From NCBI RefSeq assembly GCF_988242995.1, contig NZ_OZ547043.1: a stretch of 64,000 nt of DNA. One strand, written 5' to 3'. This document shows, one piece after another, positions 2,776 through 24,381 of this stretch. The position numbers and the translations under genes are program-made. Position 1 is the stretch's first letter, and every line of letters begins with the position of its first letter. A model generated the notes under the pieces. The model had not been told where the DNA came from. It was given only the letters and a program-made list of their open reading frames with translations, and did no database searches.

Positions 2776-3915
2776 TTACCAGTTATGAATGTCGCTGGCT
2801 GTATCCGTCATGTAACGGACACCGCTAATAGTTGGCAGCAACTGATTGATCAGACGGTTCCAGCGGGAAACCGGGGCGGTGGTGACATACACCACGTCAT
2901 AAGGTTGCAGGCGGAATTCTGTCGCCATCACCAGCGACGTGGCATCGGACATATCCAGCTGGTAGATATTGGCAATCTTGCCGTTACGCCCGCCCTCGCC
3001 TTTCAGCGGACGAATGACAAAGATGCCGCTGGCGTTGGAGGTGGTCATGTCGATGCCTTCAGCATTGCCCAGGGCTTCGGTCAGGGTCATGCCGCTAAAG
3101 TCCATTTTCAGGGTGCTCTGTTTCTTCACTTCACCCATCACAAATACTTTCAGATCATCATTACGTGGCACGTAGAGAATATCGCCGGGGTAAAGCAGGC
3201 GATTCTGGTTGAGGTCGCCGTTTTGCATCAGCGCCTGCAAAGAAATGCGTTCTTCACGACCATTGTGTGTTAACACCACGTTGCGCCAGTCAGCGGTGTC
3301 GGTCAGGCCACCTGCGGCGTTGATGGCGTCGAGAATAGTCAGTGGCACGTTGGTGATCGCCTGTTGACCGGATTTATTCACCTGACCGGAGATATAGGCC
3401 TTTTGTGAGCGGAAGGCGGCGATATTAACGTCCACCTGCGGGTCAGCGATGTACGTCGCTAAGCGCCCGGTAATATCACTGCGGATTTCAGCGAGCGTTT
3501 TCCCGACTACGTGAACCTTGCCGATATACGGGTAGAACATAGTGCCGTCAGGCTGTACCCAGTTGCCGGTGTCGCTGGAGCTGCGGTACTGACCAGCTGG
3601 CGTGGTGAGTTCCGGGTGATCCCAGACGGTGACATTAAGAACGTCGCCCGGCCCGACGCGATACTGGTAATTCGCGATCTCACTTTCCAGCGTCATATTG
3701 GGGCGCGCTACATTCGGGCGTGGGCGTAATTGGTCAATCAGGCGCGGGGTCAACGGATAAACATTCACCATTTTGTCGAGATCGAAATCAGCGTCCTGCT
3801 GTTTGATGACGTCTTTGCCCATCGTCGACATATTGCTGCCCGGAAGTACTGTGCAACCGCTTATCAAGGTTACTGACACCAATAATGGCATCAATTTCAT
3901 TTTGGATTTCATCAT
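2776..3915 (-). CDS. wza: Outer-membrane polysaccharide export lipoprotein Wza
   Basis: 379-aa ORF; signal peptide with lipobox (LISGC); conserved wza-wzb-wzc order. Confidence 0.9.
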
Positions 3916-4093
3916 TGTTTATTTATCACTTTGGCAGAGTAATTATCCTGTGCACTATTAATAGCAATGTCGCCATGCACATTTACCTTGCAGTTAATTG
4001 AATAAAAATTTAACTGGCATCAGTCCTAAAAAAATTGATTTCATCCGCAGGCTATTGACAGAATAATTCAGACTGGTCTTTCAGGCATCCAGA

Positions 4094-4105
4094 CACGCTA
4101 CCGCC
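4094..4105 (-). promoter_or_regulatory. ops element (GGCGGTAGCGTG) within JUMPstart region of the wza leader
   Basis: Reverse complement of 4094..4105 reads GGCGGTAGCGTG, the RfaH-recruiting ops sequence; located in the untranslated leader upstream of wza. Confidence 0.6.
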
Positions 4106-4572
4106 CCTGGCTTTTTAGCTACCAATACACTGATTTAGCTTAATTTTTCAAACCCTCTCTGCATACAATCGTTGATGAGAAAGGGTTATTGCGGAAATTA
4201 ACTTCCGAATATAAGGTGACATTATGGTAATTGAATATTGGCTCTCCAATAATGCAGGAGGAAGTGTTACAGCTAACGGAATAGCAGGCAAGGTAACAAT
4301 TCGGCAATTGGCTATTTTTAAGAATTATATTAAGTGTCATTCAATATGGTTTTTAGGAGTTTCTTTAGGTTGACAATATTTAATATTGCGTCTCCACATG
4401 CGATATTTCTTAAATATGTTTTATTATTACCACTTTTAATTCAGGGATAATGTGAGGTTATTACCCTCAAATAATATGAGATAAATAGTGCTGCAACATT
4501 GCATTTTTGCCCCGATTTATCCATGATCGAATTGTGACATTTGTCATACAACGAATAGGTTTTGTACTTACT

Positions 4573-6156
4573 ATGGAATGGATTGCCGATCCGTCTATCT
4601 GGGCCGGGTTAATCACGCTGATTGTGATCGAACTGGTCCTCGGCATTGATAACCTGGTCTTTATTGCCATCCTCGCCGAAAAACTACCGCCGAAGCAGCG
4701 CGACCGCGCACGGGTTACCGGGCTGTTGCTGGCGATGTTAATGCGCCTGTTACTGCTGGCGTCAATCTCCTGGCTGGTCACCCTGACGCAACCGCTGTTC
4801 AGCTTCCGCTCGTTTACCTTTAGCGCCCGCGACTTAATCATGCTGTTTGGTGGTTTCTTCCTGTTGTTCAAAGCCACGATGGAGCTGAACGAACGGCTGG
4901 AAGGGAAAGACAGCAATAATCCCACACAACGCAAAGGTGCGAAGTTCTGGGGGGTGGTGACACAAATTGTGGTACTGGACGCCATCTTCTCTCTCGACTC
5001 AGTGATTACCGCCGTCGGGATGGTCGACCATTTACTGGTCATGATGGCCGCCGTGGTTATCGCTATCAGCCTGATGTTGATGGCCAGCAAGCCGTTAACG
5101 CAATTTGTTAACAGTCACCCGACCATCGTTATTCTCTGCTTAAGCTTCCTGTTGATGATTGGCTTTAGCCTGGTGGCAGAAGGTTTCGGCTTCGTCATTC
5201 CGAAAGGCTACCTGTACGCTGCTATTGGTTTCTCGGTGATGATCGAGGCGCTCAATCAGTTGGCTATCTTTAACCGGCGACGTTTTCTTTCCGCTAACCA
5301 GACGCTGCGCCAGCGGACTACCGAAGCGGTAATGCGCCTGCTTAGCGGGCAAAAAGAAGATGCGGAACTGGACGCCGAAACCGCGTCCATGCTGGTGGAT
5401 CATGGTAACCAGCAGATCTTTAATCCGCAGGAACGGCGGATGATTGAGCGGGTACTTAATCTTAACCAGCGTACCGTCAGCAGCATTATGACGTCGCGCC
5501 ACGATATTGAGCATATCGATCTCAACGCGCCGGAAGAAGAAATCCGCCAGTTACTGGAGCGAAACCAGCATACGCGGCTGGTGGTTACCGACGGTGATGA
5601 CGCAGAAGATTTGCTCGGTGTTGTTCACGTTATCGACCTGCTACAACAGTCACTGCGCGGCGAACCGCTCAACCTGCGGGTGTTGATTCGCCAGCCGCTG
5701 GTGTTCCCGGAAACCTTGCCGTTGTTACCTGCCCTGGAGCAGTTCCGTAATGCCCGCACACACTTTGCTTTTGTGGTGGATGAGTTTGGCTCGGTGGAAG
5801 GGATTGTGACATTAAGTGACGTCACTGAAACCATTGCCGGTAACTTACCGAACGAAGTGGAAGAGATCGACGCCCGCCATGATATTCAGAAGAATGCGGA
5901 CGGTTCCTGGACGGCGAATGGTCATATGCCGCTGGAAGATCTGGTGCAATATGTGCCGTTGCCGCTGGATGAAAAACGTGAATATCACACCATTGCCGGG
6001 CTATTGATGGAATATTTGCAACGTATTCCAAAACCTGGCGAAGAAGTTCAGGTGGGGGATTATTTGCTTAAAACGTTGCAGGTGGAAAGCCATCGCGTGC
6101 AGAAGGTGCAGATTATTCCGCTGCGTAAGGATGGCGAGATGGAGTACGAGGTGTGA
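4573..6156 (+). CDS. yegH: Inner-membrane protein YegH (TerC-like N-terminus plus CBS/CorC-type C-terminus)
   Basis: ORF track 4507..6156; start moved to ATG 4573 ([12 protein letters not shown]...), giving 527 aa; multiple TM helices then a soluble C-terminal domain. Confidence 0.85.
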
Positions 6157-6159
6157 TGG

Positions 6160-6205
6160 CATGTAGGCCTGATAAGACGCGTAAAGCGTCGCATCAGGCC
6201 TACAG
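6160..6205. repeat. REP element between convergent yegH and asmA
   Basis: Palindrome GCCTGATAAGACGCG...CGCATCAGGCCTACA typical of REP. Confidence 0.5.
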
Positions 6206-6223
6206 GACAGGTCACCTGGTAAC

Positions 6224-8077
6224 CTACATCTTCTCCAGCAACTTCTTCACATCTTTGCCATTGCGGGAATCTTTATTCCGCTCGGCCCAGTCGTTAAGAC
6301 GGCGTTTTGCTTCATCCTGTAGATGTTTACGCAGTAACTGATCCACTTGCAGGCTGTAATTAAGTTGCTGCCAGTTGCCATAAACCCGCAGCGGTACTGG
6401 CGTTTCTTTGAGGAAATCAATCAGTTTGCTTTCCCCGTTCCAGCCCCCCACGACCCGAATATCAAACTGGGTGTCACAGGTTTGATCTGCCAGATTCAAC
6501 ATGCCTTCCCCTGTCAGCACCAGCACAGGCGATTGACCTTGCATGTCGTTTAACGTCACGACGCCATCCTTCAACGTCAAATCGGTGGTAAAGCGGTCAA
6601 GACGCGTCACGTTATCGAAGTTTTCAGCGGCCTTCACATCACCACCATTACGTTCTACCGCTTGCTGAATCATCTGCTGGAAGTTCATCCCTTCCATGCG
6701 TGTATCAGTCATTTCGACATGTGCCTGCCCTTGCCAGTTGTGGCGGAATGCGTCGGCATCTATGTCAGCACCGGAGAAATCACCAGCCAGTGACATCTTT
6801 CCGGTCAACGAAATCGGATAGTTAAACGCCTTCAGAATGGTGCCAATCTCAACGTTTTCCAGCCGTGGCTGGAAGTTTATCCGCGGATTTATTGATGTCG
6901 CGTCCAACGTGCCCGGCAGTGAAACCTGTCCACCGTTAAGTTTGCCCTGCAGTTGAGTAATTTCCAGCAAACCCGACTTGTTGGTCATTTGCGTGGCAAC
7001 ATCTGTAAAATTCATTCCGCGCCAGCGCACGTTACTGGCCTGCAACAAAATATCAGCCGTAAAGCCTTGCAGTCCCTGATAGGCCGGTTCATCAATACGC
7101 GAAGAAATGACCGGGCGCGGCAACGTTGATTGGCTCTGCCCTTGCTGCGCGGCACCGTTCTCACCGTTCGCTGTTTCATTAAGGGGGATGAGGTTGTCAA
7201 GATTCAGTTGCGGGAATTGCAGTCTCAGCTGCCATTCCGGTTTCTCTGTCAACGTGACCTGTGCTTGCCCGCTCAGCGTACTGTCATTGGCGGTCAAACT
7301 AATTTGGTTAAATGAAAGGCGTTTATGTGACTCCTGCCACTGGACCTGGAAACTCCCCTGCCCCTGAATACCTTGTTTTGGTAAATCTGCACCCTGCAAC
7401 TGCCAGTTAACTTGTTCAATAGCCGCCGTTAAATCATGCGGATAATCAGAAGCATCTACCGTACCGTTAAGGGATATCGTGAGATCGCGCTGATCGCGAT
7501 TAACCCGCCCGGAGAACTCAAATGAACCACGATGTTGGGGATCTTGTTCCATTTGCAGGCGAATATTGCGGATTGTCACCTGCTCGTCATCTTCATGCTG
7601 GAACACCAGCACGCTGTCCGCCACCTTAAGACTGGATATATCAAACGACCATCCGCGATCGTCTGACAGATCCGGCAAGGTATTGTCGCGTGGTGCAACC
7701 GGGGCATCTTCACTGCGTACCGCTTCCGTCTGCGGCGTCAGTTGGATCACTGCCCCTTTTAGCATCACCTGCTTAACGCTCAGTTGATGACTCAGCAGTG
7801 GTAAAAGCGCCACGTCCAGACGCATGTTGTCTGCGCGAACCAGTGGCTGGCTCGCGCCCTGGGCAGTGAGAGACATTCGCCCGGAGAGGATACTAAGCTG
7901 CGGCCAGACGTGCCAACGCAGTGGCCCGTCGAGCTGCAATTGATAACCGCTACGTGCAGCAACTTGCTTGACCATATAGTCGCGGAAATCATTCGGATTC
8001 ACCAGCAACACTAACGCAGATAACCCGGCCACCAGCACGACCAGGAGTATCATCAGCGTCGTCAGAAATCGTCTCAT
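6224..8077 (-). CDS. asmA: Outer-membrane assembly protein AsmA
   Basis: 617-aa ORF with N-terminal TM anchor (MRRFLTTLMILLVVLVAGL); conserved position upstream of dcd. Confidence 0.9.
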   Translation of the reverse strand: MRRFLTTLMILLVVLVAGLSALVLLVNPNDFRDYMVKQVAARSGYQLQLDGPLRWHVWPQLSILSGRMSLTAQGASQPLVRADNMRLDVALLPLLSHQLSVKQVMLKGAVIQLTPQTEAVRSEDAPVAPRDNTLPDLSDDRGWSFDISSLKVADSVLVFQHEDDEQVTIRNIRLQMEQDPQHRGSFEFSGRVNRDQRDLTISLNGTVDASDYPHDLTAAIEQVNWQLQGADLPKQGIQGQGSFQVQWQESHKRLSFNQISLTANDSTLSGQAQVTLTEKPEWQLRLQFPQLNLDNLIPLNETANGENGAAQQGQSQSTLPRPVISSRIDEPAYQGLQGFTADILLQASNVRWRGMNFTDVATQMTNKSGLLEITQLQGKLNGGQVSLPGTLDATSINPRINFQPRLENVEIGTILKAFNYPISLTGKMSLAGDFSGADIDADAFRHNWQGQAHVEMTDTRMEGMNFQQMIQQAVERNGGDVKAAENFDNVTRLDRFTTDLTLKDGVVTLNDMQGQSPVLVLTGEGMLNLADQTCDTQFDIRVVGGWNGESKLIDFLKETPVPLRVYGNWQQLNYSLQVDQLLRKHLQDEAKRRLNDWAERNKDSRNGKDVKKLLEKM

Positions 8078-9730: not shown

Positions 9731-12700
9731 ATGAGCAAACAATCACAGCATGTATTAATTGCCCTGCCCCACCCGCTGCTTCACCTGGTCAGTTTAGGTT
9801 TAGTCTCGTTTATCTTTACCCTTTTCTCGCTTGAGCTTTCGCAGTTTGGCACCCAACTCGCCCCACTGTGGTTCCCGACGTCCATCATGATGGTGGCGTT
9901 TTATCGCCATGCCGGGCGCATGTGGCCGGGGATTGCGCTGAGCTGCTCGCTGGGAAATATCGCCGCATCCATCCTGCTTTTTTCCACCAGCTCGCTGAAC
10001 ATGACCTGGACGACCATCAATATTGTTGAAGCCGTGGTCGGGGCAGTGCTACTACGTAAATTGCTGCCGTGGTATAACCCATTGCAAAATCTGGCTGACT
10101 GGCTGCGTCTGGCACTCGGCAGCGCCATTGTTCCACCTCTGTTGGGGGGTGTTCTGGTTATCCTGCTGACGCCCGGAGACGATCCTCTCAGGGCATTTTT
10201 GATATGGGTACTGTCAGAATCCATCGGCGCACTGGCACTGGTGCCGCTGGGATTGTTATTTAAACCACACTATCTGCTGCGCCATCGCAACCCACGGTTG
10301 CTTTTTGAGTCGCTGCTCACGTTAGCCATCACACTGACGTTAAGCTGGCTTTCGATGCTGTATCTGCCGTGGCCTTTTACTTTCATTATTGTGCTGTTGA
10401 TGTGGAGCGCCGTGCGCCTGCCACGAATGGAAGCCTTTTTGATCTTCCTTACCACGGTGATGATGGTGTCACTGATGATGGCCGCTGATCCCTCCCTGCT
10501 TGCTACGCCGCGTACATACCTGATGAGCCATATGCCGTGGCTACCGTTTTTGCTGATCCTGCTGCCCGCCAACATCATGACCATGGTGATGTATGCCTTT
10601 CGTGCGGAACGCAAACACATTTCCGAAAGCGAAACCCGTTTTCGTAATGCCATGGAATATTCCGCCATCGGCATGGCATTAGTGGGCACCGAGGGACAAT
10701 GGCTGCAATCCAACAAAGCGCTCTGCCAGTTTCTCGGTTACAGTCAGGAAGAACTGCGCGGACTCACCTTTCAGCAACTGACCTGGCCGGAGGATCTCAA
10801 TAAAGATCTGCAACAGGTTGAAAAGCTGATCAGCGGTGAAATAAACACCTATTCAATGGAAAAACGCTACTACAACCGCAATGGCGATGTTGTCTGGGCG
10901 TTGCTTGCCGTCTCACTGGTGCGCCACACGGATGGCACGCCGCTCTATTTTATCGCTCAGATTGAAGACATTAACGAGCTAAAACGCACCGAACAGGTGA
11001 ACCAGCAACTGATGGAGCGCATCACGCTGGCTAACGAAGCGGGCGGGATTGGCATCTGGGAGTGGGAGCTAAAGCCGAATATTTTTAGCTGGGATAAGCG
11101 GATGTTCGAGCTGTATGAAATTCCTCCGCATATCAAACCGAACTGGCAGGTGTGGTACGAGTGCGTGCTGCCGGAAGATCGCCAGCATGCCGAAAAAGTG
11201 ATTCGTGATTCGTTGCAATCACGCTCGCCCTTTAAGCTGGAATTTCGCATTGCCGTGAAAGATGGCATCCGCCATATCCGCGCCCTCGCCAACCGGGTAC
11301 TGAATAAAGAAGGCGAAGTCGAACGTCTGCTCGGCATTAATATGGATATGACCGAGGTTAAACAGCTTAACGAGGCATTGTTTCAGGAAAAAGAGCGCCT
11401 GCACATTACGCTGGATTCCATCGGCGAAGCCGTGGTTTGTATTGATATGGCAATGAAAATTACCTTTATGAATCCGGTGGCGGAGAAGATGAGCGGCTGG
11501 ACGCAGGAAGAAGCGTTAGGTGTTCCACTCCTGACGGTGTTGCATATTACTTTTGGCGACAACGGACCATTAATGGAGAACATTTACAGTGCCGACACCT
11601 CACGTTCCGCGATTGAACAAGATGTGGTGTTGCACTGCCGAAGCGGCGGCAGCTACGACGTGCATTACAGTATTACGCCGTTAAGTACTCTGGACGGCAG
11701 CAATATTGGTTCGGTTCTGGTGATTCAGGACGTCACCGAATCGCGCAAAATGCTGCGCCAGCTGAGCTACAGCGCCTCCCATGATGCACTGACGCATCTC
11801 GCCAATCGCGCCAGTTTTGAGAAGCAACTGCGTATCCTGCTGCAAACGGTAAATAGTACGCACCAGCGACATGCCCTGGTGTTTATCGATCTTGATCGCT
11901 TTAAAGCGGTGAATGACAGCGCCGGGCACGCCGCTGGCGACGCTTTACTGCGCGAACTGGCGTCATTGATGCTGAGTATGCTGCGCTCCAGCGACGTGCT
12001 GGCGCGACTCGGTGGCGATGAATTTGGTCTGCTGCTGCCAGATTGTAATGTCGAAAGTGCGCGTTTTATCGCTACACGCATTATCAGCGCCGTGAATGAC
12101 TATCACTTTATCTGGGAAGGACGTGTACATCGGGTAGGTGCCAGTGCCGGGATTACCTTGATTGATGACAACAATCATCAGGCGGCTGAAGTGATGTCGC
12201 AGGCTGATATCGCCTGTTATGCCTCCAAAAATGGTGGCCGGGGCCGGGTGACGATTTACGAACCGCAGCAAGCTGCCGCACATAGCGAACGGGCGGCGAT
12301 GTCGCTTGATGAACAGTGGCGGATGATTAAAGAGAATCAGTTGATGATGATCGCCCACGGTGTCGCTTCGCCGCGGATCCCGCAAGCGCGTAATTTGTGG
12401 CTGATTTCACTTAAGCTCTGGAGTTGCGAAGGCGAGATTATTGATGAACAAACATTTCGTCGTAGCTTCAGCGATCCGGCACTTAGCCATGCTCTTGACC
12501 GACGGGTATTCCACGATTTTTTCCAGCAGGCCGCCAAAGCGGTTGCCAGTAAAGGTATAAGCATCGCCCTCCCGCTTTCCGTTGCCGGTTTGAGTAGCGC
12601 CACGCTGGTGAATGAACTAATTGAGCAGCTGGAAAATAGCCCTCTACCACCACGGTTATTACATCTGATTATTCCGGCAGACGCGATTTTAGATCACGCA

Positions 12701-13085: not shown

Positions 13086-13943
13086 CTACAATTCGTCCGT
13101 TCCGTCTGGTTGCCAGCCTTCCGTATACCAGATATGCAACAGCGCATAAGAACGCCAGGGCTTCCAGCGTTCGGCATAACGGCGGATTTGTGCCGGTGTC
13201 ATTCCCGGAAATCGCTGTTTAATCAGATAATCATCCGGCAGGAAAACATCTTTCGCCTGCCAGCCACGTAAGGCGAAATAATTCGCCGTCCAGCGCCCGA
13301 TACCCGGAAAAGTTTGCAGCGTTTTCATCGCTTGCTCTACGTCGCCCGGAATTGTCATTGGTAAGGTGCCCTCCAGCGCCGCATTTGCCAGATTAATCAG
13401 CGCCTCTGCCCGTTTCAACGGCATACCTAACGCTTTTAATGCCTGCGGGTCGGCTGCAGCCAGCCGCTGAGGCGTGGGGAAGCAGACATAATCCGGAAAA
13501 TCATCCAGCCGTTCGCCATAAAGCTGTGCCACTCTGGCGGTCAATTTTGCCGCCATCGCCACGCTCACCAGTTGGCCTAAAATCGCCCGCACGCCCTGCT
13601 CAAAAGCATCAACACTGCCGGGTAAACGCAATCCGGGCCGCGCCGCGCCTAACTTGCCCAACGCACCGTTAACAATCTGCGGGTTACATTGCAGATCAAA
13701 CAGGCGGCTCATTTTCGCCAGACACTCTGCGGCAACAGGTTCTAAACCTGCACTTAAATTTATGTGCAGAGTATGGCGGGCTATATCCGGAATAGCAGTC
13801 ACCACGCCGCGATATTCGCCCACCGCCAGACTACGGGCATAATAATCGTCAGCGACCGTTTCCACACCGTTCACCGCACGGGCGGCGAGAAATCCCAACA
13901 TCCACGACCAGTCATACGGCGGCTGCCAGTTCAGGGTATACAT
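13086..13943 (-). CDS. alkA: 3-methyladenine DNA glycosylase II
   Basis: 285-aa ORF beginning MYTLNWQPPYDWSWMLGFLAARAV; HhH-GPD region (TFPGIGRWTANYFALRG). Confidence 0.9.
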   Translation of the reverse strand: MYTLNWQPPYDWSWMLGFLAARAVNGVETVADDYYARSLAVGEYRGVVTAIPDIARHTLHINLSAGLEPVAAECLAKMSRLFDLQCNPQIVNGALGKLGAARPGLRLPGSVDAFEQGVRAILGQLVSVAMAAKLTARVAQLYGERLDDFPDYVCFPTPQRLAAADPQALKALGMPLKRAEALINLANAALEGTLPMTIPGDVEQAMKTLQTFPGIGRWTANYFALRGWQAKDVFLPDDYLIKQRFPGMTPAQIRRYAERWKPWRSYALLHIWYTEGWQPDGTDEL

Positions 13944-14076
13944 CGCATCTCCTTGTTAATCCGCTTTCAGCATAAACGTTATTCAGACGTTACGCTTTGC
14001 TTTCATATTCCGGTTGTCGCGACGGCAACATTTCGCTAAAGTCACGCCCCTTCTTCACCGGCATGGGGATTATTTC

Positions 14077-15441: not shown

Positions 15442-17382
15442 TCAGCAACGGCTTAAATCAGCCTGCGCCTGAGCCAGTTTTTCTGCCGCCTGACGTAACG
15501 GTTCCATCAACGGCATGGTCCGTGCTGGAGCATGAAGGCGGAATCGCTGCAACTCTGTCGCACCGACAGTCAACGCCGATTCCAGCCGATGTCGTTTGGC
15601 GGCCATTTTTGCCATTACCGCTTGTCTGTCTGCAGGCGTTACCGCTTCGTTCGGCCTGAAAACAAAACGGCGTTCGCAACTCGCTTTCCAGTCGATAACC
15701 GCCTGGGTCAGATGATCACCAAAACCTTTCACTTGCTTAACGCTCCGTCGGGTAACGTCTGCCGCCGTTTCAATACCAAAGGACCGTAACGCAGCTTTAC
15801 GCGCAGGGCCAACGCCGGGAATAGAGGCAACATCAATAAAAAATCCCTCCAGAAACTTCTGCTTCTGCCGTTCCCTTGCGGTGTCCTGAAGTGCTGCCAG
15901 AGCGCGTTTCTCTTCTTCCGGTAACCCGAGCATTTCGTCCTTCATTTTTTCGAGCATCGTCCGTTTGGCGATAAAACCTTCCAGCCCGCCCAACCGTTGG
16001 ATCTGGCTGACTAAATGGTCATAGTCCATTTTCGCGCGATTAAACGCCTCACGGCGTTGCTGGATTTCTGCTTTGTACGCTTTGCTTGTCAGGCTGCCAA
16101 TAATCCAGATAGCCGCCAGCACAGGAACCAAAATAATATAACGCGGTTCTGCCTGAAGGCCGCAAAGCAACAGCGATAACGCTGACAGTGCGATCTCAAT
16201 CAGAATGATGTATTCGCGCCGTAACAGGCCTAAAGGAAGCGGCCTGCCAGTCAGTTGGAAATGATCGGGTAATGGCAGTTGCAATGCTGGCGGTGCTACT
16301 GACGCCATCACCATCGCCCAGACTTTCGCCAGCACAAAATCACCGCTGGTGGTAATGACCTCTTCGCCGAGATCAATAAAATAGATAACGCCTTGATTAT
16401 CCAGCGCACACCACGGGCAGTCAGTCAAATGACCGGGGTAAACATGCATTGCCGAAACGGTACATTTCTTTAACTGTTGGCGTAGTAAATCAAGTGCCGC
16501 AACCCACGCTTTTGCCGTCGGACGCCCGGTTGCCACGCCACTTTCCGTGAATGCCTGCTGAAACATGGTTTCAACATCGCCCGGTAACATCGACAGCGGA
16601 ATAGATCGTGGCGGCGGTTTTAAACCACGTCGCTGATTATCTGACGCGTAGGCATAACGGAAATGGGCAATATCCGTCTCCAGTGCATTACCCGCATCAG
16701 AGACAAGCGGTACACCGGAATAAGGATGCCGCCCACCAAACAAGACGTGAAAAATCAGCAACGCAAGGCCAAAATTATCGTGATTCGCGGTGCGTTCAAA
16801 GCCGACAAATGATGGCAAGGTTTGCAGCTCTGGCGGCGTAAAATGCGACACGCCGACTTCGCATAAATGCAGCGTGCCATTGGCGTTAATCTGAAAGGAG
16901 TCGCTATCAATCAACACCACTTTGCTGTCGCGACCTACCATAAAACTGTTCTGGTTTACGTCACCCACGACGTGCCCGTGCTCGTGAACCGTAGCAAAAG
17001 ATGAAGCAATATTGCGCGCAACATAGAGTAGAAAATCCCACGCACAATGAGGGTAACGTTGACGACGATGTGCCGGGCTATAGATCATATGAATCGGTTC
17101 TTTACCAGAAACTTTTGGCATCATAAAACCGATAACTTTTCCGCCTCGTCCACCGTGAAGCGTTGCCTGCGGCCAGGCGACATAATTCAACAATTGCGCG
17201 TCAGCTGTCGCAGCCATAAAGGCAAGTTTGTCCTGTTTTAAGGCGGGTGGCGGCGTGTGATAAATCTTGGCGACGCTATCGACAAACTCATTGATATCAT
17301 AAACCGCGCCTTCACCGCCTTTGCCCAGTTCACGGCCTGGCGTAACGCACTCACCAGTAGCAGTATATAAAGTGGGTTTCAT
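15442..17382 (-). CDS. yegI: Eukaryotic-like Ser/Thr protein kinase YegI
   Basis: ORF track 15442..17391; ATG at 17382 overlaps the pphC stop (ATGA); kinase-like N-terminal region, TM segment and C-terminal domain. Confidence 0.85.
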   Translation of the reverse strand: MKPTLYTATGECVTPGRELGKGGEGAVYDINEFVDSVAKIYHTPPPALKQDKLAFMAATADAQLLNYVAWPQATLHGGRGGKVIGFMMPKVSGKEPIHMIYSPAHRRQRYPHCAWDFLLYVARNIASSFATVHEHGHVVGDVNQNSFMVGRDSKVVLIDSDSFQINANGTLHLCEVGVSHFTPPELQTLPSFVGFERTANHDNFGLALLIFHVLFGGRHPYSGVPLVSDAGNALETDIAHFRYAYASDNQRRGLKPPPRSIPLSMLPGDVETMFQQAFTESGVATGRPTAKAWVAALDLLRQQLKKCTVSAMHVYPGHLTDCPWCALDNQGVIYFIDLGEEVITTSGDFVLAKVWAMVMASVAPPALQLPLPDHFQLTGRPLPLGLLRREYIILIEIALSALSLLLCGLQAEPRYIILVPVLAAIWIIGSLTSKAYKAEIQQRREAFNRAKMDYDHLVSQIQRLGGLEGFIAKRTMLEKMKDEMLGLPEEEKRALAALQDTARERQKQKFLEGFFIDVASIPGVGPARKAALRSFGIETAADVTRRSVKQVKGFGDHLTQAVIDWKASCERRFVFRPNEAVTPADRQAVMAKMAAKRHRLESALTVGATELQRFRLHAPARTMPLMEPLRQAAEKLAQAQADLSRC

Positions 17383-18140
17383 GGTAACCACAGCGCCAGT
17401 GCCAACGTTTTATCATCATCCGTACGCTCGTTTACCGCCGGGCTGGACAAAAACTGCTTTAACAATTCAGGTAATAAATCGAGTTGTTCCTGCGTTGCTG
17501 ACGCCAGTCCATTGAAAAACGGGGTAAAGAAAGGTACATGAGGAGAATTATCCAGCATATTTAACGCCAGTCGCTGGATACCATCCGTAAATGCTGCAAC
17601 TTTGTGCGCACGCCCAGTGCTGGTGAAAGTTTCCAGTCTGGAAACGGCATCTTCGTCGGTAATGAAGTGCGTCATATTGGCATATTCACCCACCATCGGC
17701 GTGAGAGGCAATTGCAGACCGTGACCCAAATCTACCACCATGCCGCCATCGCCAATCTGCATAATCAAGGTGCCGTCAGGCGATGAAATCAGTCCCAGAA
17801 ATGTACAGGCAAAATCGCGAACCGCTAATTCTTTGGCTTCCGCCTCGGCAAAAAGTCGTTGACGAATGGTCAGCACAATATCCGTGGCGAGGACATCATT
17901 AAGCCCCAATTCCCCGCCCTGCACTTTTTGCGACATATAAGCCATCGCTTCATTGACGGCGAGCATCGCGCCTTCGCCACCCTGCGAGACACTGCCTGCG
18001 CCATCAGCGACAAATACCGACAATAATGGCTGCTGGTCATTTAACCAGGCAACCTGCATCTGGCAGGCATCCTGGCAAGGCAAGTCCGCGCTGATGTGCG
18101 ACGTTCCAACGGTTGATGCATAGACCAGACGCCAGCTCAC
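17379..18140 (-). CDS. pphC: PP2C-family protein phosphatase PphC (YegK)
   Basis: 253-aa ORF; PP2C-like acidic motifs ([12 protein letters not shown]); translationally coupled to yegI and yegL. Confidence 0.85.
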
Positions 18141-18796
18141 ACTGACGTCCAGCCTTTTGGCGCTTCCAGCACAACTTCCGTTCCCGGCGTGGAGCGGGAA
18201 ACCGAACGCAGCGAACTGGATAACCAGCTAAACAGTTCACGGAATTGTAATCCCTGCAGTGGCAAAGGCTGACGAACGCTGATTTGTGCCAGCGTCTTCA
18301 TATCCGCCCCCTGTACACCAATGGTAAAGAAGGCAAACTTCTTATCTTCTTCCCCCTGAAACACTTTGTTGGCGGCAGCCTGCCACTCATCGGTTGGAGC
18401 GCCATCGGTGATCAGGAAAATCCACGGGCGATAATAGGAAATACCATTTGCACGATACTCACGTTTCCGCTCCTCTACCATATCCAGGGCTTTGGTAATG
18501 GCAGCGCCCATTGGTGTATCGCCCTGGGCAAACAGGATGGGCGGGAAAAAATTAGCGGCGCTGGTAAAGGGTTGTTCCACATGCACCGGGCCGAACGTCA
18601 CAATGCCGAGTTCCACTCTTTTTAAGGCTAGCGAATCGGCAAGCAGTTCATCGCGAAAGGTAACCAATCCGGCGTTAAGTTCATTAATAGGTCTACCACT
18701 CATCGAACCAGAAACATCCAACAGCAAAATGCAGGGGCAACGTGGTTCCGGGTTACTGGCAAAATCGCTGGTGGCAAACGTGATTTGTTCGCTCAT
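18137..18796 (-). CDS. yegL: von Willebrand factor A domain protein YegL
   Basis: 219-aa ORF with vWA MIDAS-type motif (DVSGSMSG); first gene of the yegL-pphC-yegI operon. Confidence 0.85.
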
Positions 18797-18979
18797 AAGA
18801 AATCCTTTCTTAGAGAATTATCGAGGTCCGGTATCATACCGATTGCAATAATGAAATAAGAGCAAACGAAGAAACTTTCAGAATTAGGCCCGGCGGCGCA
18901 GAAAATTTTGCTATTCGCCTCGCAAGAACGGAGAGCCGTCGATTGACACTAAGGGCGGAGTGACATAATTTCAGGAGTG

Positions 18980-19126
18980 AGGGTTAGGGAGAGGTTTCCC
19001 CCTCCCCCTGGTGTTCTTAGTAAGCCTGGAAGCTAATCACTAAGAGTATCACCAGTATGATGACGTGCTTCATCATAACCCTTTCCTTATTAAAAGCCCT
19101 CTTCTCCGGGAGAGGGTTTCCCGTTT
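18980..19126 (+). ncRNA. sibA: Sib antitoxin sRNA, copy 1 (antisense to ibs copy 1)
   Basis: Sigma70-like promoter TTGACA (18943-18948), 17-bp spacer, TAATTT (18966-18971); intrinsic terminator hairpin CCCTCTTCTCCGGGAGAGGG plus T-tract ending ~19126; fully overlaps ibs on the opposite strand. Ends are approximate. Confidence 0.6.
19017..19076 (-). CDS. ibsA: Type I toxin Ibs, copy 1 (MMKHVIILVILLVISFQAY)
   Basis: 19-codon ORF on the minus strand encoding a hydrophobic Ibs-family peptide; embedded in the first ~330-bp tandem unit. Confidence 0.75.
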   Translation of the reverse strand: MMKHVIILVILLVISFQAY

Positions 19127-19312
19127 CAGCGTCCCGCTGAAATCGTCGGCTTACCTCCTTTCGCCCTGAATGCAGTCTATCGCTAACGCGTGAACAAAAT
19201 AGTTTCCTCTGTGATTATTGCGTAACGACTCGCAAAGAATATTTGCTGGCAGGATCGCAGACTGCAAAGCCTGCGGATTGACAATCTTATCGTGAAGGCA
19301 TAATTTCAGGAG

Positions 19313-19454
19313 TGAGGGTAGAGCGGGGTTTCCCCCGCCCTGGTAGTCTTAGTAAGCGGGGAAGCTTATGACTAAGAGCACCACGATGATGAGTAGCTTC
19401 ATCATGACCCTTTCCTTATTTAAGGCCCCTTCCTCGGGAGGGGCTTTCCCGTTT
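19313..19454 (+). ncRNA. sibB: Sib antitoxin sRNA, copy 2
   Basis: Promoter TTGACA (19278-19283), 17-bp spacer, TAATTT (19301-19306); terminator hairpin GGCCCCTTCCTCGGGAGGGGC plus T-tract ending ~19454. Ends are approximate. Confidence 0.6.
19349..19405 (-). CDS. ibsB: Type I toxin Ibs, copy 2 (MMKLLIIVVLLVISFPAY)
   Basis: 18-codon minus-strand ORF; Ibs-family hydrophobic peptide within the second tandem unit. Confidence 0.75.
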   Translation of the reverse strand: MMKLLIIVVLLVISFPAY

Positions 19455-19640
19455 CAGCGTCCCGCTGAAATCGTCGACTTACCTCCTTTCGCCCTGTATG
19501 CAGTCTATCGCTGACTTGCGGATAAAATAGTTTCCAGTGTGATTATTGCGTAACGTCTCGCAAAGAATATTTGCTGGCAGGATCGCAGACTGCAAAGCCT
19601 GCAGATTGACAATCTTATCGTGAAGGCATACTTTCAGGAG

Positions 19641-19782
19641 TGAGGGTAGAGCGGGGTTTCCCCCGCCCTGGTAGTCTTAGTATGCTGGGTAGCTAATCAC
19701 TAAGAGCACCACGATGATGATCCACTTCATCATGACCCTTTCCTTATTTAAGGCCCCTTCCTCGGGAGGGGCTTTCCCGTTT
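19641..19782 (+). ncRNA. Sib antitoxin sRNA, copy 3
   Basis: Promoter TTGACA (19606-19611), 17-bp spacer, TACTTT (19629-19634); terminator hairpin plus T-tract ending ~19782. Ends are approximate. Confidence 0.55.
19677..19733 (-). CDS. Type I toxin Ibs, copy 3 (MMKWIIIVVLLVISYPAY)
   Basis: 18-codon minus-strand ORF, paralogous to copies 1 and 2, within the third tandem unit. Confidence 0.7.
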   Translation of the reverse strand: MMKWIIIVVLLVISYPAY

Positions 19783-19940
19783 CAGCGTCCCGCTGAAATC
19801 GTCGGCTTACCTCCTTTCGCCATGCAAGCAGTCTATCGCTAACGCGTAGATAAAATAGTTTCATGTGTTATTACTGGATGCGTGCTCGCAAATGTGCCCG
19901 TCATTCAGACGATTCCCGACAGTGTTTCATAATTCCTCCA

Positions 19941-20011: not shown

Positions 20012-21259
20012 ATGAAAGGCAGTTATAAATCCCGTTGGGTAATCGTAATCGTGGTGGTTATCGCCGCCATCGCCGCATTCTGGTTCTGGCAAGGCCGCAA
20101 TGACTCCCGGAGTGCAGCCCCAGGGGCGACGAAACAAGCGCAGCAATCGCCAGCGGGTGGTCGCCGTGGTATGCGTTCCGGCCCATTAGCCCCGGTTCAG
20201 GCGGCGACCGCCGTAGAACAGGCTGTTCCGCGTTACCTCACCGGGCTTGGCACCATTACCGCCGCTAATACTGTTACGGTGCGCAGCCGCGTGGACGGTC
20301 AACTGATGGCGTTACATTTCCAGGAAGGCCAGCAGGTCAAAGCAGGCGATTTACTGGCAGAAATTGACCCCAGCCAGTTCAAAGTTGCATTAGCACAAGC
20401 CCAGGGCCAACTGGCAAAAGATAAAGCCACGCTTGCCAACGCCCGCCGTGACCTGGCGCGTTATCAGCAACTGGCAAAAACCAATCTCGTATCTCGTCAG
20501 GAACTGGATGCCCAACAAGCGCTGGTCAGTGAAACCGAAGGCACCATTAAGGCTGATGAAGCAAGCGTCGCCAGCGCGCAGCTGCAACTCGACTGGAGCC
20601 GCATCACCGCACCAGTCGATGGTCGCGTTGGTCTCAAGCAGGTTGATGTTGGTAACCAAATCTCCAGTGGTGATACCACCGGGATTGTGGTGATCACCCA
20701 GACGCATCCTATCGATTTGCTCTTTACCCTGCCGGAAAGCGATATCGCTACCGTAGTACAGGCGCAAAAAGCCGGAAAACCGCTGGTTGTTGAAGCCTGG
20801 GATCGCACCAACTCGAAGAAATTAAGTGAAGGCACGCTGTTAAGTCTCGATAACCAAATCGATGCCACTACCGGTACGATTAAAGTGAAAGCACGCTTTA
20901 ATAATCAGGATGATGCGCTGTTTCCCAATCAGTTTGTTAACGCGCGTATGTTAGTCGACACCGAACAAAACGCCGTGGTGATCCCCACCGCCGCTCTGCA
21001 AATGGGCAACGAAGGCCATTTTGTCTGGGTGCTGAATAGCGAAAACAAGGTCAGCAAACATCTGGTGACGCCGGGCATTCAGGACAGTCAGAAAGTGGTG
21101 ATCCGCGCAGGTATTTCTGCGGGCGACCGCGTAGTGACAGACGGCATTGATCGCCTGACCGAAGGGGCGAAAGTGGAAGTAGTGGAAGCCCAGAGCGCCA
21201 CCACTCCGGAAGAGAAAGCCACCAGCCGCGAATACGCGAAAAAAGGAGCACGCTCCTGA
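20012..21259 (+). CDS. mdtA: RND efflux membrane-fusion protein MdtA
   Basis: ORF track 19865..21259; start set to ATG 20012 ([19 protein letters not shown]...), giving 415 aa. Confidence 0.9.
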
Positions 21260-24200
21260 TGCAGGTGTTACCCCCGAGCAGCACAGGCGGCCCGTCGCGC
21301 CTGTTTATTATGCGTCCTGTCGCCACCACGCTGCTGATGGTGGCGATCTTACTCGCCGGGATTATCGGTTATCGCGCCCTGCCCGTTTCGGCGCTGCCGG
21401 AAGTGGACTATCCGACCATTCAGGTAGTCACGCTCTACCCAGGTGCGAGCCCGGATGTCATGACCTCTGCCGTTACCGCGCCGCTTGAACGCCAGTTTGG
21501 GCAGATGTCTGGCCTGAAACAGATGTCGTCGCAAAGTTCCGGCGGTGCGTCAGTTATCACCTTACAGTTCCAGCTAACATTACCGCTCGATGTCGCCGAG
21601 CAGGAAGTGCAGGCCGCGATTAACGCTGCGACCAACTTGTTGCCGAGCGATCTGCCTAACCCGCCGGTTTACAGCAAAGTGAACCCGGCAGATCCACCAA
21701 TCATGACGCTCGCCGTCACCTCAACCGCCATGCCAATGACGCAAGTGGAAGATATGGTGGAAACCCGCGTCGCGCAGAAAATCTCGCAGATTTCCGGTGT
21801 CGGCCTGGTGACGCTTTCCGGCGGCCAGCGTCCGGCTGTTCGCGTCAAACTTAACGCTCAGGCGATTGCCGCCCTCGGCCTGACCAGCGAAACCGTACGC
21901 ACCGCTATTACCGGCGCTAACGTTAACTCGGCAAAAGGTAGCCTCGACGGCCCTTCCCGTGCGGTCACACTTTCCGCGAACGACCAGATGCAATCCGCCG
22001 AAGAGTATCGCCAGCTGATCATCGCCTACCAGAACGGCGCGCCGATTCGTCTGGGCGATGTCGCAACCGTAGAGCAAGGTGCAGAAAACAGCTGGCTCGG
22101 CGCATGGGCGAATAAAGAACAGGCCATTGTGATGAATGTTCAGCGCCAGCCCGGTGCTAACATTATCTCCACCGCCGACAGCATCCGGCAGATGCTGCCA
22201 CAGCTCACCGAGAGTCTGCCGAAATCGGTGAAGGTGACGGTACTTTCTGACCGTACCACCAATATCCGCGCATCCGTCGATGATACCCAGTTTGAACTGA
22301 TGATGGCTATCGCGCTGGTAGTCATGATTATCTACCTGTTTTTGCGCAATATTCCGGCGACCATCATTCCTGGCGTCGCAGTGCCGCTGTCGTTAATTGG
22401 CACCTTTGCGGTTATGGTGTTTCTCGATTTTTCAATCAATAACCTGACGCTGATGGCGTTAACTATCGCCACCGGATTCGTGGTCGATGACGCCATCGTG
22501 GTGATCGAGAACATTTCGCGCTATATCGAAAAAGGCGAAAAACCGCTGGCGGCGGCGCTCAAAGGCGCAGGTGAAATCGGCTTTACCATTATCTCGCTGA
22601 CCTTCTCACTGATTGCAGTGTTGATCCCACTGCTATTTATGGGCGATATCGTCGGGCGACTGTTCCGCGAATTTGCAATTACTCTGGCAGTCGCGATTTT
22701 GATCTCAGCCGTGGTGTCGCTGACCCTGACACCGATGATGTGTGCGCGGATGCTCAGCCAGGAGTCGCTGCGTAAACAGAACCGCTTCTCCCGTGCCTCG
22801 GAAAAAATGTTCGACAGGATAATCGCCGCCTATGGTCAGGGACTTGCGAAAGTGCTGAATCATCCGTGGCTGACCTTAAGCGTGGCGCTCAGCACGCTGC
22901 TGCTTAGCGTGCTGTTGTGGGTGTTCATTCCGAAAGGTTTCTTCCCGGTACAGGACAACGGCATTATTCAGGGCACTTTGCAGGCACCGCAATCCAGCTC
23001 CTTTACCAATATGGCCCAGCGGCAACGCCAGGTCGCGGATGTGATTTTGCAAGATCCGGCGGTGCAAAGTCTGACCTCATTTGTTGGCGTTGATGGCACT
23101 AACCCGTCGCTGAACAGTGCGCGTTTGCAGATCAACCTCAAACCGTTGGATGAACGTGATGATCGGGTGCAAAAAGTCATCGCCCGTCTGCAAACGGCGG
23201 TGGATAAAGTGCCGGGCGTCGATCTCTTCCTGCAACCAACGCAGGACCTGACCATCGATACTCAGGTCAGCCGCACCCAGTACCAGTTTACCTTGCAGGC
23301 CACGTCACTGGATGCGCTCAGTACCTGGGTGCCACAGTTGATGGAAAAACTCCAGCAACTGCCACAGCTTTCTGATGTCTCCAGCGACTGGCAGGACAAA
23401 GGGCTGGTGGCGTATGTCAATGTTGATCGCGACAGCGCCAGCCGTCTGGGGATCAGCATGGCGGACGTCGATAACGCCCTGTACAACGCGTTTGGTCAGC
23501 GACTGATTTCCACTATTTATACTCAGGCCAACCAGTATCGCGTGGTGCTGGAGCACAACACCGAAAATACTCCTGGGCTTGCGGCGCTGGATACTATTCG
23601 CCTGACCAGCAGCGACGGCGGCGTGGTGCCGCTAAGCTCAATTGCCAAAATTGAGCAGCGTTTTGCGCCGCTTTCCATCAACCATCTGGATCAGTTCCCG
23701 GTAACGACCATCTCCTTTAACGTGCCGGATAACTATTCGCTGGGCGATGCGGTGCAGGCGATTATGGACACCGAAAAGACGCTGAATCTGCCGGTGGATA
23801 TCACCACGCAGTTCCAGGGCAGCACCCTCGCCTTCCAGTCGGCGTTGGGCAGCACTGTCTGGCTGATTGTCGCGGCGGTGGTGGCGATGTATATCGTGCT
23901 CGGCATTCTGTACGAGAGCTTTATTCACCCGATCACCATTCTCTCGACGCTACCCACCGCAGGGGTCGGCGCACTGCTGGCGTTACTGATTGCCGGTAGC
24001 GAGCTGGATGTGATTGCGATTATCGGCATTATTTTGCTGATCGGTATCGTGAAGAAGAACGCCATCATGATGATCGACTTCGCGCTGGCTGCTGAGCGCG
24101 AGCAAGGCATGTCGCCGCGCGAGGCAATCTACCAGGCTTGTCTGTTACGTTTTCGTCCGATCCTGATGACCACTCTGGCGGCTCTGCTTGGCGCGCTGCC

Positions 24201-24381
24201 GCTGATGTTGAGTACCGGGGTCGGCGCGGAACTGCGTCGTCCGTTAGGTATCGGCATGGTCGGCGGTCTGATTGTCAGCCAGGTGCTGACGCTGTTCACC
24301 ACGCCGGTGATTTATCTGCTGTTCGACCGCCTGGCATTGTGGACCAAAAGTCGCTTTGCTCGCCATGAAGAGGAGGCGTAA
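21259..24381 (+). CDS. mdtB: RND multidrug efflux transporter MdtB
   Basis: 1040-aa ORF; 12-TM RND architecture; start overlaps the mdtA stop. Confidence 0.9.

Follow-up and report, generated by a model that had tools for sequence, protein, structure and literature searches.

The closest described counterpart of the locus considered here is the yegL-pphC-yegI operon of Escherichia coli REL606 and O157:H7 (Rajagopalan, Nagle and Dworkin, J Bacteriol 2018; Rajagopalan and Dworkin, FEBS Lett 2020). Its phosphatase, PphC, is a Mn2+-dependent PP2C Ser/Thr phosphatase that removes phosphate from YegI (10.1101/303594), and YegI is a two-pass inner-membrane kinase with both termini in the cytoplasm, according to PhoA-LacZ topology, which autophosphorylates with a requirement for Ser162 (10.1101/819920). 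The latter work also described the ATGA overlap of pphC and yegI in REL606 and O157:H7 and the presence of yegJ in K strains, and detected weak yegI expression in stationary phase (10.1101/819920). Expression of the triad was undetectable to its authors under any condition, and yegI mutations were recurrent in the long-term evolution experiment (10.1101/303594). Overproduction of YegL or YegI raises DNA damage, but since overproduction of the neighbouring MdtA and MdtB does the same (10.1101/354589), this effect is not specific to the triad.

The same vWA, PP2C and Ser/Thr kinase logic, in the form of a stand-alone cassette, is found in the TerY-P systems, which were hypothesised to be metal-sensing phosphorylation switches (Anantharaman et al. 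2012, as summarised in PMC11090510) and which protect against phage (PMC11090510; 10.1101/2022.08.12.503731). The validated TerY-P defence kinase (Gao et al. 2020) ends in a C-terminal OB fold (PMC11090510), and a P. aeruginosa variant was reported by Costa et al. (10.1101/2022.08.12.503731). Another comparable operon, Deinococcus radiodurans DRA0331-DRA0334, co-encodes a vWA protein, a membrane STPK and a PP2C phosphatase that acts on the operon's kinase (10.64898/2026.01.23.701218); it differs from the E. coli triad in gene order, in possessing an extra FHA protein and in the KI-FHA domain on its phosphatase.

The locus and its gene junctions

The window, by which we mean the whole 64,000-nucleotide stretch of DNA analysed, carries this triad on its minus strand, where three intact open reading frames exactly fill positions 15442 to 18796.

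18137-18796, minus strand: yegL, 219 aa, ATG start, vWA protein (open reading frame list and raw sequence)
18137-18140, minus strand: junction 1, GTGA, the yegL TGA stop overlapping the pphC GTG start by 4 nt (sequence; RefSeq coordinates agree)
17379-18140, minus strand: pphC (yegK), 253 aa, GTG start, PP2C phosphatase (open reading frame list and raw sequence)
17379-17382, minus strand: junction 2, ATGA, the pphC TGA stop overlapping the yegI ATG start by 4 nt (sequence)
15442-17382, minus strand: yegI, 646 aa from the ATG at 17382, Ser/Thr kinase (open reading frame list)

The longest yegI frame begins at a GTG at 17391; we place the start at the ATG at 17382 because both the RefSeq annotation of the closest genome and the family alignment support it. 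RefSeq names the products 'vWA domain-containing protein', 'protein-serine/threonine phosphatase PphC' and 'protein kinase YegI' (646 aa in the closest genome). The order of the three genes on one strand is that of the published locus, and comparison with K-12 and the closest genome places yegD on one side and the ibs/sib repeats upstream of mdtA on the other. Reading frames, domain matches and RefSeq names thus uphold the gene identities and order given in an earlier note on this DNA, and its placement of the triad next to type I toxin-antitoxin repeats is equally correct, those being the adjoining ibs/sib repeats. Compared with the published REL606 / O157:H7 operon, the window shares the flanks, the 219/253/646-aa products, the pphC/yegI ATGA overlap, the absence of yegJ and the catalytic residues, and differs in alleles only. 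This is the known, published operon, intact and ordinary here.

The earlier note had called both overlaps ATGA-type. They are indeed 4 nt long at both junctions, but only the one between pphC and yegI is ATGA, that between yegL and pphC being GTGA. Among ten homologous triads of other genera, the vWA/PP2C 4-nt overlap is retained in six, with examples in Klebsiella, Piscinibacter, Chromobacterium and metagenomic relatives, and the PP2C/kinase junction is in every case either a 4-nt overlap or a gap of at most 15 nt. Chance is not the source of the overlaps, because the arrangement aligns as a single colinear piece in most E. coli genomes. Through the start/stop overlaps, translation of the three genes would be coupled, with the proteins perhaps produced together. 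A search upstream of yegL yielded no sigma-70-like promoter, the scan counts being equal to the shuffled expectation and hence uninformative.

Distribution in E. coli and the yegJ segment

Of 5426 complete E. coli genomes, 5416 carry the locus, which is near-universal and, as the earlier note took it to be, a conserved chromosomal one; the triad is full length and intact (at least 80% coverage) in 5402 of them, as a colinear match of 95-99.5% identity. The window allele shares 95-97% identity with most genomes and reaches at least 99% in four only. Divergence specific to this locus was considered and rejected, as mdtB of the same window also peaks at 98.6%; going by these comparisons, the scarcity of close alleles reflects a generally divergent lineage. 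The dN/dS values against K-12 (yegL 0.065, pphC 0.31, yegI 0.125) indicate purifying selection on all three genes, and inspection of the window genes for frameshifts or loss of catalytic residues found none. Matches of the locus to E. coli 'plasmid' records were discarded as evidence of mobility; these records range from 0.04 to 4.9 Mb and are most likely chromosomal pieces or mislabelled.

The open reading frame list contains no yegJ-like frame between the triad genes of the window, in agreement with the earlier note, which was unsure whether K-12 has one at this place. It does: yegJ separates yegI from pphC there, is encoded on the other strand and forms part of an AT-rich 785-bp segment that substitutes for 50 bp corresponding to window positions 17338-17387, as placed by the BLAST break points. 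The genes are otherwise orthologous and the yegL/pphC overlap is identical, but with the swap the pphC/yegI overlap is lost, PphC ends in two different residues, and YegI, which has 648 aa in K-12, differs over its first ~15. The segment occurs in 1932 of the 5426 genomes (~35%), so synteny is not identical in all E. coli; the triad has no strain-specific feature here, the window representing the common yegJ-less form. That form is the majority form and probably the ancestral one.

Architecture of YegI, YegL and PphC

YegI begins with a kinase domain and continues through a zinc ribbon and a pair of TM helices to a coiled coil and a helix-hairpin-helix (HhH) tail; the zinc ribbon and the HhH module are predictions from conserved residues and profile matches.

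16483-17382, minus strand: YegI residues 1-300, Hanks-type kinase domain (invariant columns, Foldseek, PDB profile search)
16393-16476, minus strand: YegI residues 303-330, putative zinc ribbon, C307-x5-H313-x8-C322-P-W-C325
16084-16227, minus strand: YegI residues about 386-433, two TM helices with a loop of ~6 residues (model, family alignment)
15658-15849, minus strand: YegI residues 512-575, predicted HhH DNA-binding-type module (Pfam HHH_5, conserved block)

The window protein has no match to Pfam Pkinase at E <= 0.01 and does not reach the gathering score, in keeping with its characterisation in the literature as 'lacking conserved motifs'; Pkinase is nevertheless matched at E <= 0.001 by 63 of 74 family members, the best at 3.7e-11. 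A PDB profile search with YegI returned protein kinases exclusively. With an alignment of only 20 sequences, AlphaFold modelled the kinase domain at a pLDDT below 50, and we used instead the model built on 116 diverse sequences (pLDDT 94.7), whose Foldseek matches in the PDB include CaMKII, PknB, B-Raf and Aurora B at probability 1.00 and target-normalised TM-scores of 0.65-0.73. Across these 116 sequences G22, K39, D141, N143, D159, D161, S162 and E185 are invariant, so that the bilobal fold comes with the catalytic Lys (K39), the catalytic-loop Asp and Asn (D141, N143) and the DFG-equivalent Asp (D159); S162 is where autophosphorylation has been reported to take place. The predicted window protein retains K39, D141 and S162, and kinase activity is published for the REL606 / K-12 proteins.

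In the putative zinc ribbon C307, H313, C322, W324 and C325 are invariant in the 116 sequences, and the model shows two short strands, 304-306 and 314-316. The TM helices (389-409 and 415 onward in the model) form a poorly conserved segment with almost no periplasmic loop. The HHH_5 match of YegI (E 2.9e-4) is below the Pfam gathering score and 7 of 74 relatives match HHH_5; the block itself is strongly conserved (G525, G536, A540, D542, G553, W565) and is bordered by long coiled-coil helices (434-511 and 583-645). The family goes by the database name 'DNA-binding helix-hairpin-helix protein with protein kinase domain'.

YegL is a stand-alone, TerY-like vWA protein (Pfam VWA, E 2.8e-10) with a complete MIDAS metal site (D27-x-S-x-S31, T94, D130). 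The predicted PphC of the window retains the PP2C_2 domain (Pfam, E 3.2e-52), and phosphatase activity is published for the REL606 / K-12 proteins. An NCBIfam scan of the triad gave generic weak matches only. The convergent neighbour YegD is a PRK11678 Hsp70-like chaperone according to NCBIfam. We entertained it as a fourth component and dropped it, none of the ten related loci having an Hsp70-like gene nearby.

Kinship with TerY-P triads

By sequence comparison, YegL, PphC and YegI each show a specific relationship to the TerY-P triad found in the tellurite-resistance clusters of plasmids. YegL aligns with TerY-C of IncHI2 at 28% identity over 188 aa (E 3e-20), with the MIDAS DxSxS, T and D in register, and more than 2000 plasmids carry TerY paralogues that it matches; PphC matches the ter-cluster PP2C at E 5e-5, and YegI the ter-cluster kinase at E 2e-6, over the C-lobe and a CxxC motif that follows the kinase. 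The gene order vWA, PP2C, kinase is shared with the IncHI2 cluster. The proteins of the latter are larger or of another build, namely a TerY-C of 346 aa with a metal-binding C-domain, a PP2C of 545 aa and a kinase of 499 aa without the membrane hairpin, coiled coil and HhH that YegI has, and the IncHI2 triad is embedded among terW/terX/terY genes whereas the E. coli triad lacks ter neighbours. None of the ter genes sought (terZABCDE, terX, terW) was found in the flanks of the window triad or at ten related loci; such linkage is typical of the founding TerY-P examples and is not required for membership. The defining elements appear to be in place, with a TerY-like vWA bearing a MIDAS, an adjoining PP2C, and as third gene a kinase followed by the putative zinc ribbon.

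This kinship does not carry over to the defence models. We scanned the three proteins and YegD with PADLOC at E 0.01 and E 10. The TerY model of PADLOC-DB 2.0 met YegL over a partial stretch only (E 0.013, 13 bits), PphC had no match, and YegI had only weak PD-T4-6 and MkoA kinase matches. Filing the triad as a PADLOC TerY-P system was therefore rejected, since neither TerY-P nor any other defence model was matched in a meaningful way. The OB fold of the TerY-P defence kinase is missing in YegI, whose C-terminus instead runs through the TM hairpin and coiled coil into the predicted HhH module and then a long helix. Our literature search found no paper in which yegL-pphC-yegI was tested against phage, and a search of phage genomes with YegI returned one weak partial kinase match, leaving a phage-borne cassette unsupported.

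Relatives outside E. coli

At E <= 1e-30 the relatives fall into 3195 clusters (50% identity), and the triad of ~220, ~250 and ~645 aa persists down to 36% identity. Identity is 91% in E. marmotae, 63% in Klebsiella and about 60% in Betaproteobacteria; Deinococcus plasmid kinases match YegI at about 33%, and the cassette is found on Pseudomonas megaplasmids. The genes next to individual relatives are as follows.

Relative L003: SNase, BrxR, JetB and McrA-like genes
Relative L004: GmrSD, type I R-M and SymE
Relative L006: AbiH, KAP NTPase and Tn7-like genes
Relative L008: two SNase genes
Relative L011: a PLD-like gene
Relative L012: a Mrr_cat gene
Relatives L007, L009 and L013: housekeeping genes, without a defence neighbour

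The cassette is thus widespread and mobile outside E. coli and occurs in defence islands and beside nuclease genes. Together with the TerY-P kinship, these islands bear out the earlier note where it describes vWA/kinase modules as recurrent in conflict systems, the defence association of the cassette itself being anecdotal at ten contexts without a control set.

Discussion

We consider it very probable that the locus is best understood as the known operon in its yegJ-less form, working as a TerY-P-type three-component switch. Within this account, the membrane hairpin would merely localise YegI, and the HhH tail, which would lie in the cytoplasm and probably form dimers by way of the coiled coil, might bind DNA non-specifically and thereby gate trans-autophosphorylation of the kinase. 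YegL would then be a partner, a substrate or an adaptor of the switch, engaged through its MIDAS metal site, and PphC would reset it. The most likely role, as we draw it from the mobility of the cassette elsewhere and its frequent nuclease and defence neighbours, would be a response that normally stays silent and is directed at foreign or damaged DNA, as when a phage or plasmid enters. Counting against a role in defence, the copy in E. coli belongs to the core genome, is fixed, and has no nuclease linked to it. A bolder version of the same idea, which we regard as unlikely, makes the triad a domesticated mobile cassette of TerY-P type that serves as an inner-membrane sensor of foreign DNA or phage. 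The cytoplasmic HhH tail would detect incoming or damaged DNA and turn the kinase on by way of YegL, and PphC would reset it; the whole would constitute a distinct membrane/HhH subtype missed by the models of current defence finders, and the yegJ insertion, carried by about 35% of E. coli, would uncouple the kinase from the phosphatase as a natural regulatory polymorphism.

Let us consider, then, what the triad might be if it has no part in defence. YegI and PphC could belong to a housekeeping module of stress or stationary phase, tuning the phosphorylation of ordinary proteins, such as those of DNA repair, the nucleoid or the envelope, on an endogenous cue, with YegL as scaffold. The position of the locus as a core one, fixed in Escherichia and under purifying selection, among alkA, yegD and mdtABCD rather than in an island, speaks for this, as do the weak stationary-phase expression of yegI, its recurrent mutations in the long-term evolution experiment, the relatives L007 and L013 that also sit among housekeeping genes, and the DNA-damage signalling context in which the Deinococcus vWA/kinase/FHA/PP2C operon has been discussed (10.64898/2026.01.23.701218). 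Against these stand the megaplasmid copies of the cassette, its defence or mobile contexts, and a patchy phyletic pattern that, with the identity drop from E. marmotae to Klebsiella and Betaproteobacteria, points to spread by horizontal transfer and not to a housekeeping gene of long standing. We regard this explanation as possible but on the whole doubtful.

The same TerY kinship could also be read as pointing to a sensor of metal or of tellurite-type chemical stress, in which the MIDAS of YegL senses a metal ion and the kinase/phosphatase pair relays the signal. The closest annotated relatives of YegL are tellurite-cluster TerY proteins, its MIDAS is fully conserved, PphC depends on Mn2+, and metal sensing is what was hypothesised for TerY-P in the source summarised above. 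A MIDAS metal usually serves protein-ligand binding rather than sensing, ter genes are absent near the E. coli triad and the ten relatives, and the conserved HhH tail and the nuclease neighbours point to nucleic acid instead, so we hold this reading to be quite improbable. Equally little credence is given to the triad being a silent relic, left by a formerly mobile cassette that was domesticated or is in decay and that E. coli has ceased to express or use. Robust expression was seen under no condition, no promoter-like site stands upstream of yegL, roughly a third of genomes tolerate a divergently transcribed insertion between the phosphatase and kinase genes, and many YegI database entries are truncated, though most of these are probably contig fragments. 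A relic would sit poorly, however, with a triad that is full length in nearly all genomes at dN/dS of 0.07-0.3, that keeps all its catalytic, Ser162 and Cys/His residues, and whose recombinant proteins are active (10.1101/819920, 10.1101/303594).

Returning to the three-component switch, re-identification of the operon matters little in itself. Publications of 2018-2020 had already given its gene content, 4-nt coupling and yegJ polymorphism, and they cover all that the earlier note observed, the ATGA overlap and the matter of yegJ among it (10.1101/303594, 10.1101/819920). What is new here is the TerY-P kinship, the mismatch with PADLOC, the mobility of the cassette and the domain order of YegI. 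YegI and PphC are the only known pair of PP2C phosphatase and partner kinase in E. coli, and the TerY-P kinship, cassette mobility, nuclease and defence neighbours and HhH tail together provide a concrete hypothesis for what this pair may do, namely DNA-triggered defence or stress signalling, for which a yegJ-less strain such as that of the window would be a suitable setting.

Results

The triad and its flanks

The interval 15442-18796 is filled exactly by three intact minus-strand ORFs, in agreement with the earlier note, which had read a vWA / PP2C phosphatase / Ser-Thr kinase operon at these coordinates and had placed it next to type I toxin-antitoxin repeats.

Features of the triad locus
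15442-17382, minus strand, yegI, 646 aa, ATG start
17379-18140, minus strand, pphC (yegK), 253 aa, GTG start
18137-18796, minus strand, yegL, 219 aa, ATG start
18943-19091, plus strand, Sib/Ibs unit, Rfam SIB_RNA
19278-19420, plus strand, Sib/Ibs unit, Rfam SIB_RNA
19606-19748, plus strand, Sib/Ibs unit, Rfam SIB_RNA (139-150 bits for each unit)
Upstream flank of the triad: dgcE, alkA, yegD
Downstream flank of the triad: three Sib/Ibs type I toxin-antitoxin repeats, then mdtA

The repeats lie between yegL and mdtA as three tandem units of Sib antitoxin RNA and Ibs toxin, with a unit length of ~328 bp across 18989-19892; K-12 has two annotated ibs genes at this site, whereas NY1601, the genome closest to the window, has three, as the window does. 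Both gene junctions are 4-nt overlaps, but the ATGA type proposed for both holds, on the coding strand, only for pphC/yegI (17379-17382), the yegL/pphC overlap being GTGA (18137-18140). The longest yegI ORF begins at a GTG at 17391; judging from the RefSeq annotation of the closest genome and the family alignment, we take the ATG to be the true start.

YegL matches Pfam VWA (E 2.8e-10) and PphC matches PP2C_2 (E 3.2e-52), while the sole Pfam match of YegI is a sub-threshold HHH_5 at residues 515-551. Relative to K-12, dN/dS is 0.065 for yegL, 0.31 for pphC and 0.125 for yegI, and the three genes are therefore under purifying selection. We note that the dS of pphC (17379-18140), 0.035, is about fourfold below that of yegL (0.156) and yegI (0.137), which hints at a recombination mosaic inside the operon. 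In the upstream flank, alkA (13086-13943, minus strand) encodes 285 aa in the window and NY1601 versus 282 aa in K-12, with a different C-terminal end, and the longest yegD ORF, from a TTG at 14014, has 471 aa versus 450 aa in the RefSeq annotation.

Variation among E. coli and the yegJ segment

Megablast of the 3355-bp triad interval against 5426 complete E. coli genomes found the locus in 5416, with at least 80% coverage in 5402, and all are annotated yegI / pphC / yegL; this is indeed a conserved chromosomal locus. A yegI gene, at 91-98% identity, is also found in nine E. coli records labelled plasmids (H43-H51), which range in size from 43 kb to 4.9 Mb; these are probably pieces of chromosome or replicons with a wrong label, not genuine plasmid copies.

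The earlier note saw no yegJ between the genes and was unsure about K-12. The window has none; K-12 does, and because this opposite-strand gene sits between yegI and pphC, K-12-type genomes align in two pieces. By the alignment break points, 785 bp of K-12 (4897-5681 of the K-12-type locus) stand in place of 50 bp of the window (17338-17387), altering the first ~15 residues of YegI, one version of this N-terminus being MKTNIKVFTSTGELTTL, as well as the final two of PphC. The segment is present in 1932 of the 5426 genomes, in alleles down to 90-95% identity (up to 5-10% apart), and therefore ~65% of genomes have the arrangement of the window. In E. marmotae, in Klebsiella and in relatives further away nothing lies between the two genes and the YegI N-terminus is of the window type, so absence of yegJ is most likely the ancestral condition. 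We also observe that the K-12 segment is a replacement and not a simple insertion, and that its new YegI N-terminus, MKTNIKVFTSTGE..., fits the family consensus (..FTSxG..); this suggests that recombination brought the segment in from a homologous but divergent triad.

The triad allele of the window is unusually divergent, with at least 99% identity in four genomes only (best NY1601, 99.5%). Because mdtB (21259-24381) is equally divergent, its best match among the 5426 genomes being 98.6%, this divergence reflects the lineage of the strain and not the locus; the lineage is poorly represented among these genomes. At the tested loci most E. coli genomes are 95-99% identical to the window, and NY1601 is an isolate from chicken faeces. 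The triad itself is an operon that is well conserved and has been characterised before, and the window carries its majority form: synteny with K-12 and other E. coli, which the earlier note had left to comparison, is not uniform owing to the yegJ polymorphism, but there is no strain-specific feature inside the triad.

Anatomy of YegI

At E <= 1e-30 the YegI family is large, with 3195 clusters at 50% identity, and ~645 aa is the length of most of its proteins. Pfam Pkinase is matched by 63 of 74 family members but not by the E. coli protein itself. Across 116 aligned members G22, K39, D141, N143, D159, D161, S162 and E185 are invariant, as are C307, H313, C322, W324, C325 and several positions of the C-terminal block; S162, the published autophosphorylation site, is thus unchanged in 116/116. 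An AlphaFold model built from 116 diverse sequences (pLDDT 94.7, pTM 0.82) retrieved only protein kinases from the PDB with Foldseek (CaMKII, PknB, B-Raf, Aurora B; TM-score normalised to target ~0.7), and a sequence profile search of the PDB likewise returned kinases only, none of them a solved structure from the YegI family. The layout below combines the model with the conservation pattern.

Predicted layout of YegI
1-300, kinase domain
303-330, putative Cys/His zinc-ribbon-like hairpins
after 330, proline-rich linker
~386-433, two TM helices of low conservation, joined by a ~6-residue loop
to 511, coiled coil
512-575, HhH block with strong conservation
583-645, long terminal helix

Since the model leaves essentially no periplasmic loop, YegI would be unable to sense outside the cell, and localising the protein is most plausibly all that the membrane hairpin does.

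Relatives of the triad

Full-length YegI homologues are 91% identical in E. marmotae, whereas the next step, in Klebsiella spallanzanii and K. aerogenes, is already down at 63%, and Piscinibacter and Chromobacterium remain at ~58-60%; the distribution is patchy and horizontally transferred. The ~220/250/645-aa cassette is complete and tightly packed in all ten loci examined. It also occurs on Pseudomonas megaplasmids, including pQBR103, and was not found in the phage genomes searched.

Cassette neighbours in related loci (in brackets, nuclease-family genes directly beside the triad)
L003, Piscinibacter: SNase (5932-6474), McrA-like, SLFN-type helicase, BrxR, JetB
L004, K. spallanzanii: GmrSD, type I R-M, SymE
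L006, Chromobacterium: AbiH, KAP NTPase, Tn7-like genes
L008, metagenomic: two SNase genes (5917-6501 and 10709-11224)
L011: PLD-like gene (427-1731)
L012: Mrr_cat gene directly downstream (3636-4388)
L007, L009, L013: ordinary housekeeping genes

The adjacent nuclease genes (SNase, Mrr_cat, PLD-like) could be variable effectors; the E. coli triad has no adjoining nuclease gene. The SNase gene in these relatives is preceded by a ~70-aa ORF. We rejected the Hsp70-like YegD as a module member because it is never linked to the triad elsewhere in the ten loci.

TerY-P triads combine a vWA protein of the TerY type with a PP2C phosphatase and with a Ser/Thr kinase that has a zinc ribbon behind it; they are tied to DNA-processing systems and tellurite resistance, while some variants are stand-alone anti-phage systems (PMC11090510, PMC4978471, 10.1101/2022.08.12.503731). 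YegL matches TerY paralogues of ter clusters on >2000 plasmids. On the IncHI2 ter plasmid, where the order is TerY-C, PP2C, kinase, YegL aligns with TerY-C at all MIDAS residues (E 3e-20), PphC with the PP2C (E 5e-5) and YegI with the kinase over the C-lobe and CxxC motif (E 2e-6). Because all three proteins match in the same order, we classify yegL-pphC-yegI, by sequence comparison, as a TerY-P-type triad in the broad sense. Membership of the PADLOC-modelled TerY-P defence family was rejected: against those models YegL reaches only E 0.013 on TerY, PphC and YegI have no match, and validated TerY-P defence kinases end in an OB fold (PMC11090510) whereas YegI has a different tail. DUF4236 may be a recurrent triad associate: one such gene is close to the IncHI2 ter-cluster triad (L014, 2813-4021), another to a metagenomic YegI-type triad (L008, 1962-3182).

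Discussion

Much of this locus has been described. The phosphatase YegK/PphC, PP2C-like and Mn2+-dependent, removes phosphate from YegI and so reverses the autophosphorylation of the kinase (Rajagopalan, Nagle & Dworkin, 10.1101/303594; J Bacteriol 2018), in a paper that maps the operon in REL606 and K-12, yegJ included. YegI is an active Ser/Thr kinase lacking several consensus residues (Rajagopalan & Dworkin, 10.1101/819920; FEBS Lett 2020), and its activation requires Ser162; it crosses the inner membrane twice, with both termini in the cytoplasm. The same work reports the ATGA overlap of yegI with pphC in REL606 and O157:H7, and yegJ in K strains. A 2026 paper restates this strain distribution and reports binding of YegJ to RNase E (PMC13232886). 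The observation of the earlier note is confirmed and its interpretation supported, and every element of it is already in print (10.1101/303594, 10.1101/819920).

How might the triad work? The overlaps would couple translation and hold the three proteins in proportion. The coiled coil would make YegI a dimer, and its HhH tail might bind DNA near the membrane without sequence specificity and so control trans-autophosphorylation on S162; YegL, via its MIDAS site, would perhaps be adaptor or substrate of this switch, and PphC would reset it.

We regard a response to foreign or damaged DNA as the most likely, if weakly supported, role, on account of the nuclease and defence neighbours (ten contexts, taken without a control set), the TerY-P kinship, and the increase in endogenous DNA damage on overproduction of YegL or YegI (10.1101/354589); kinship and neighbours likewise bear out the link to conflict systems drawn in the earlier note. 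On the other side, the PADLOC models give no match and the E. coli triad lacks a linked effector. It is possible that the triad is a purely housekeeping stress-signalling module, and some relatives do sit among housekeeping genes, others beside defence genes; or a metal/tellurite sensor, the ter clusters being kin at the sequence level while the kinase tail differs. A silent relic is possible too: Rajagopalan & Dworkin found no condition with expression of the locus. Against a relic, the genes are under purifying selection. With a DNA response preferred, the core E. coli triad can be put forward, as an idea, as a candidate membrane/HhH subtype of TerY-P defence or DNA-sensing systems, which is the sole forward-looking element in an otherwise already known locus.
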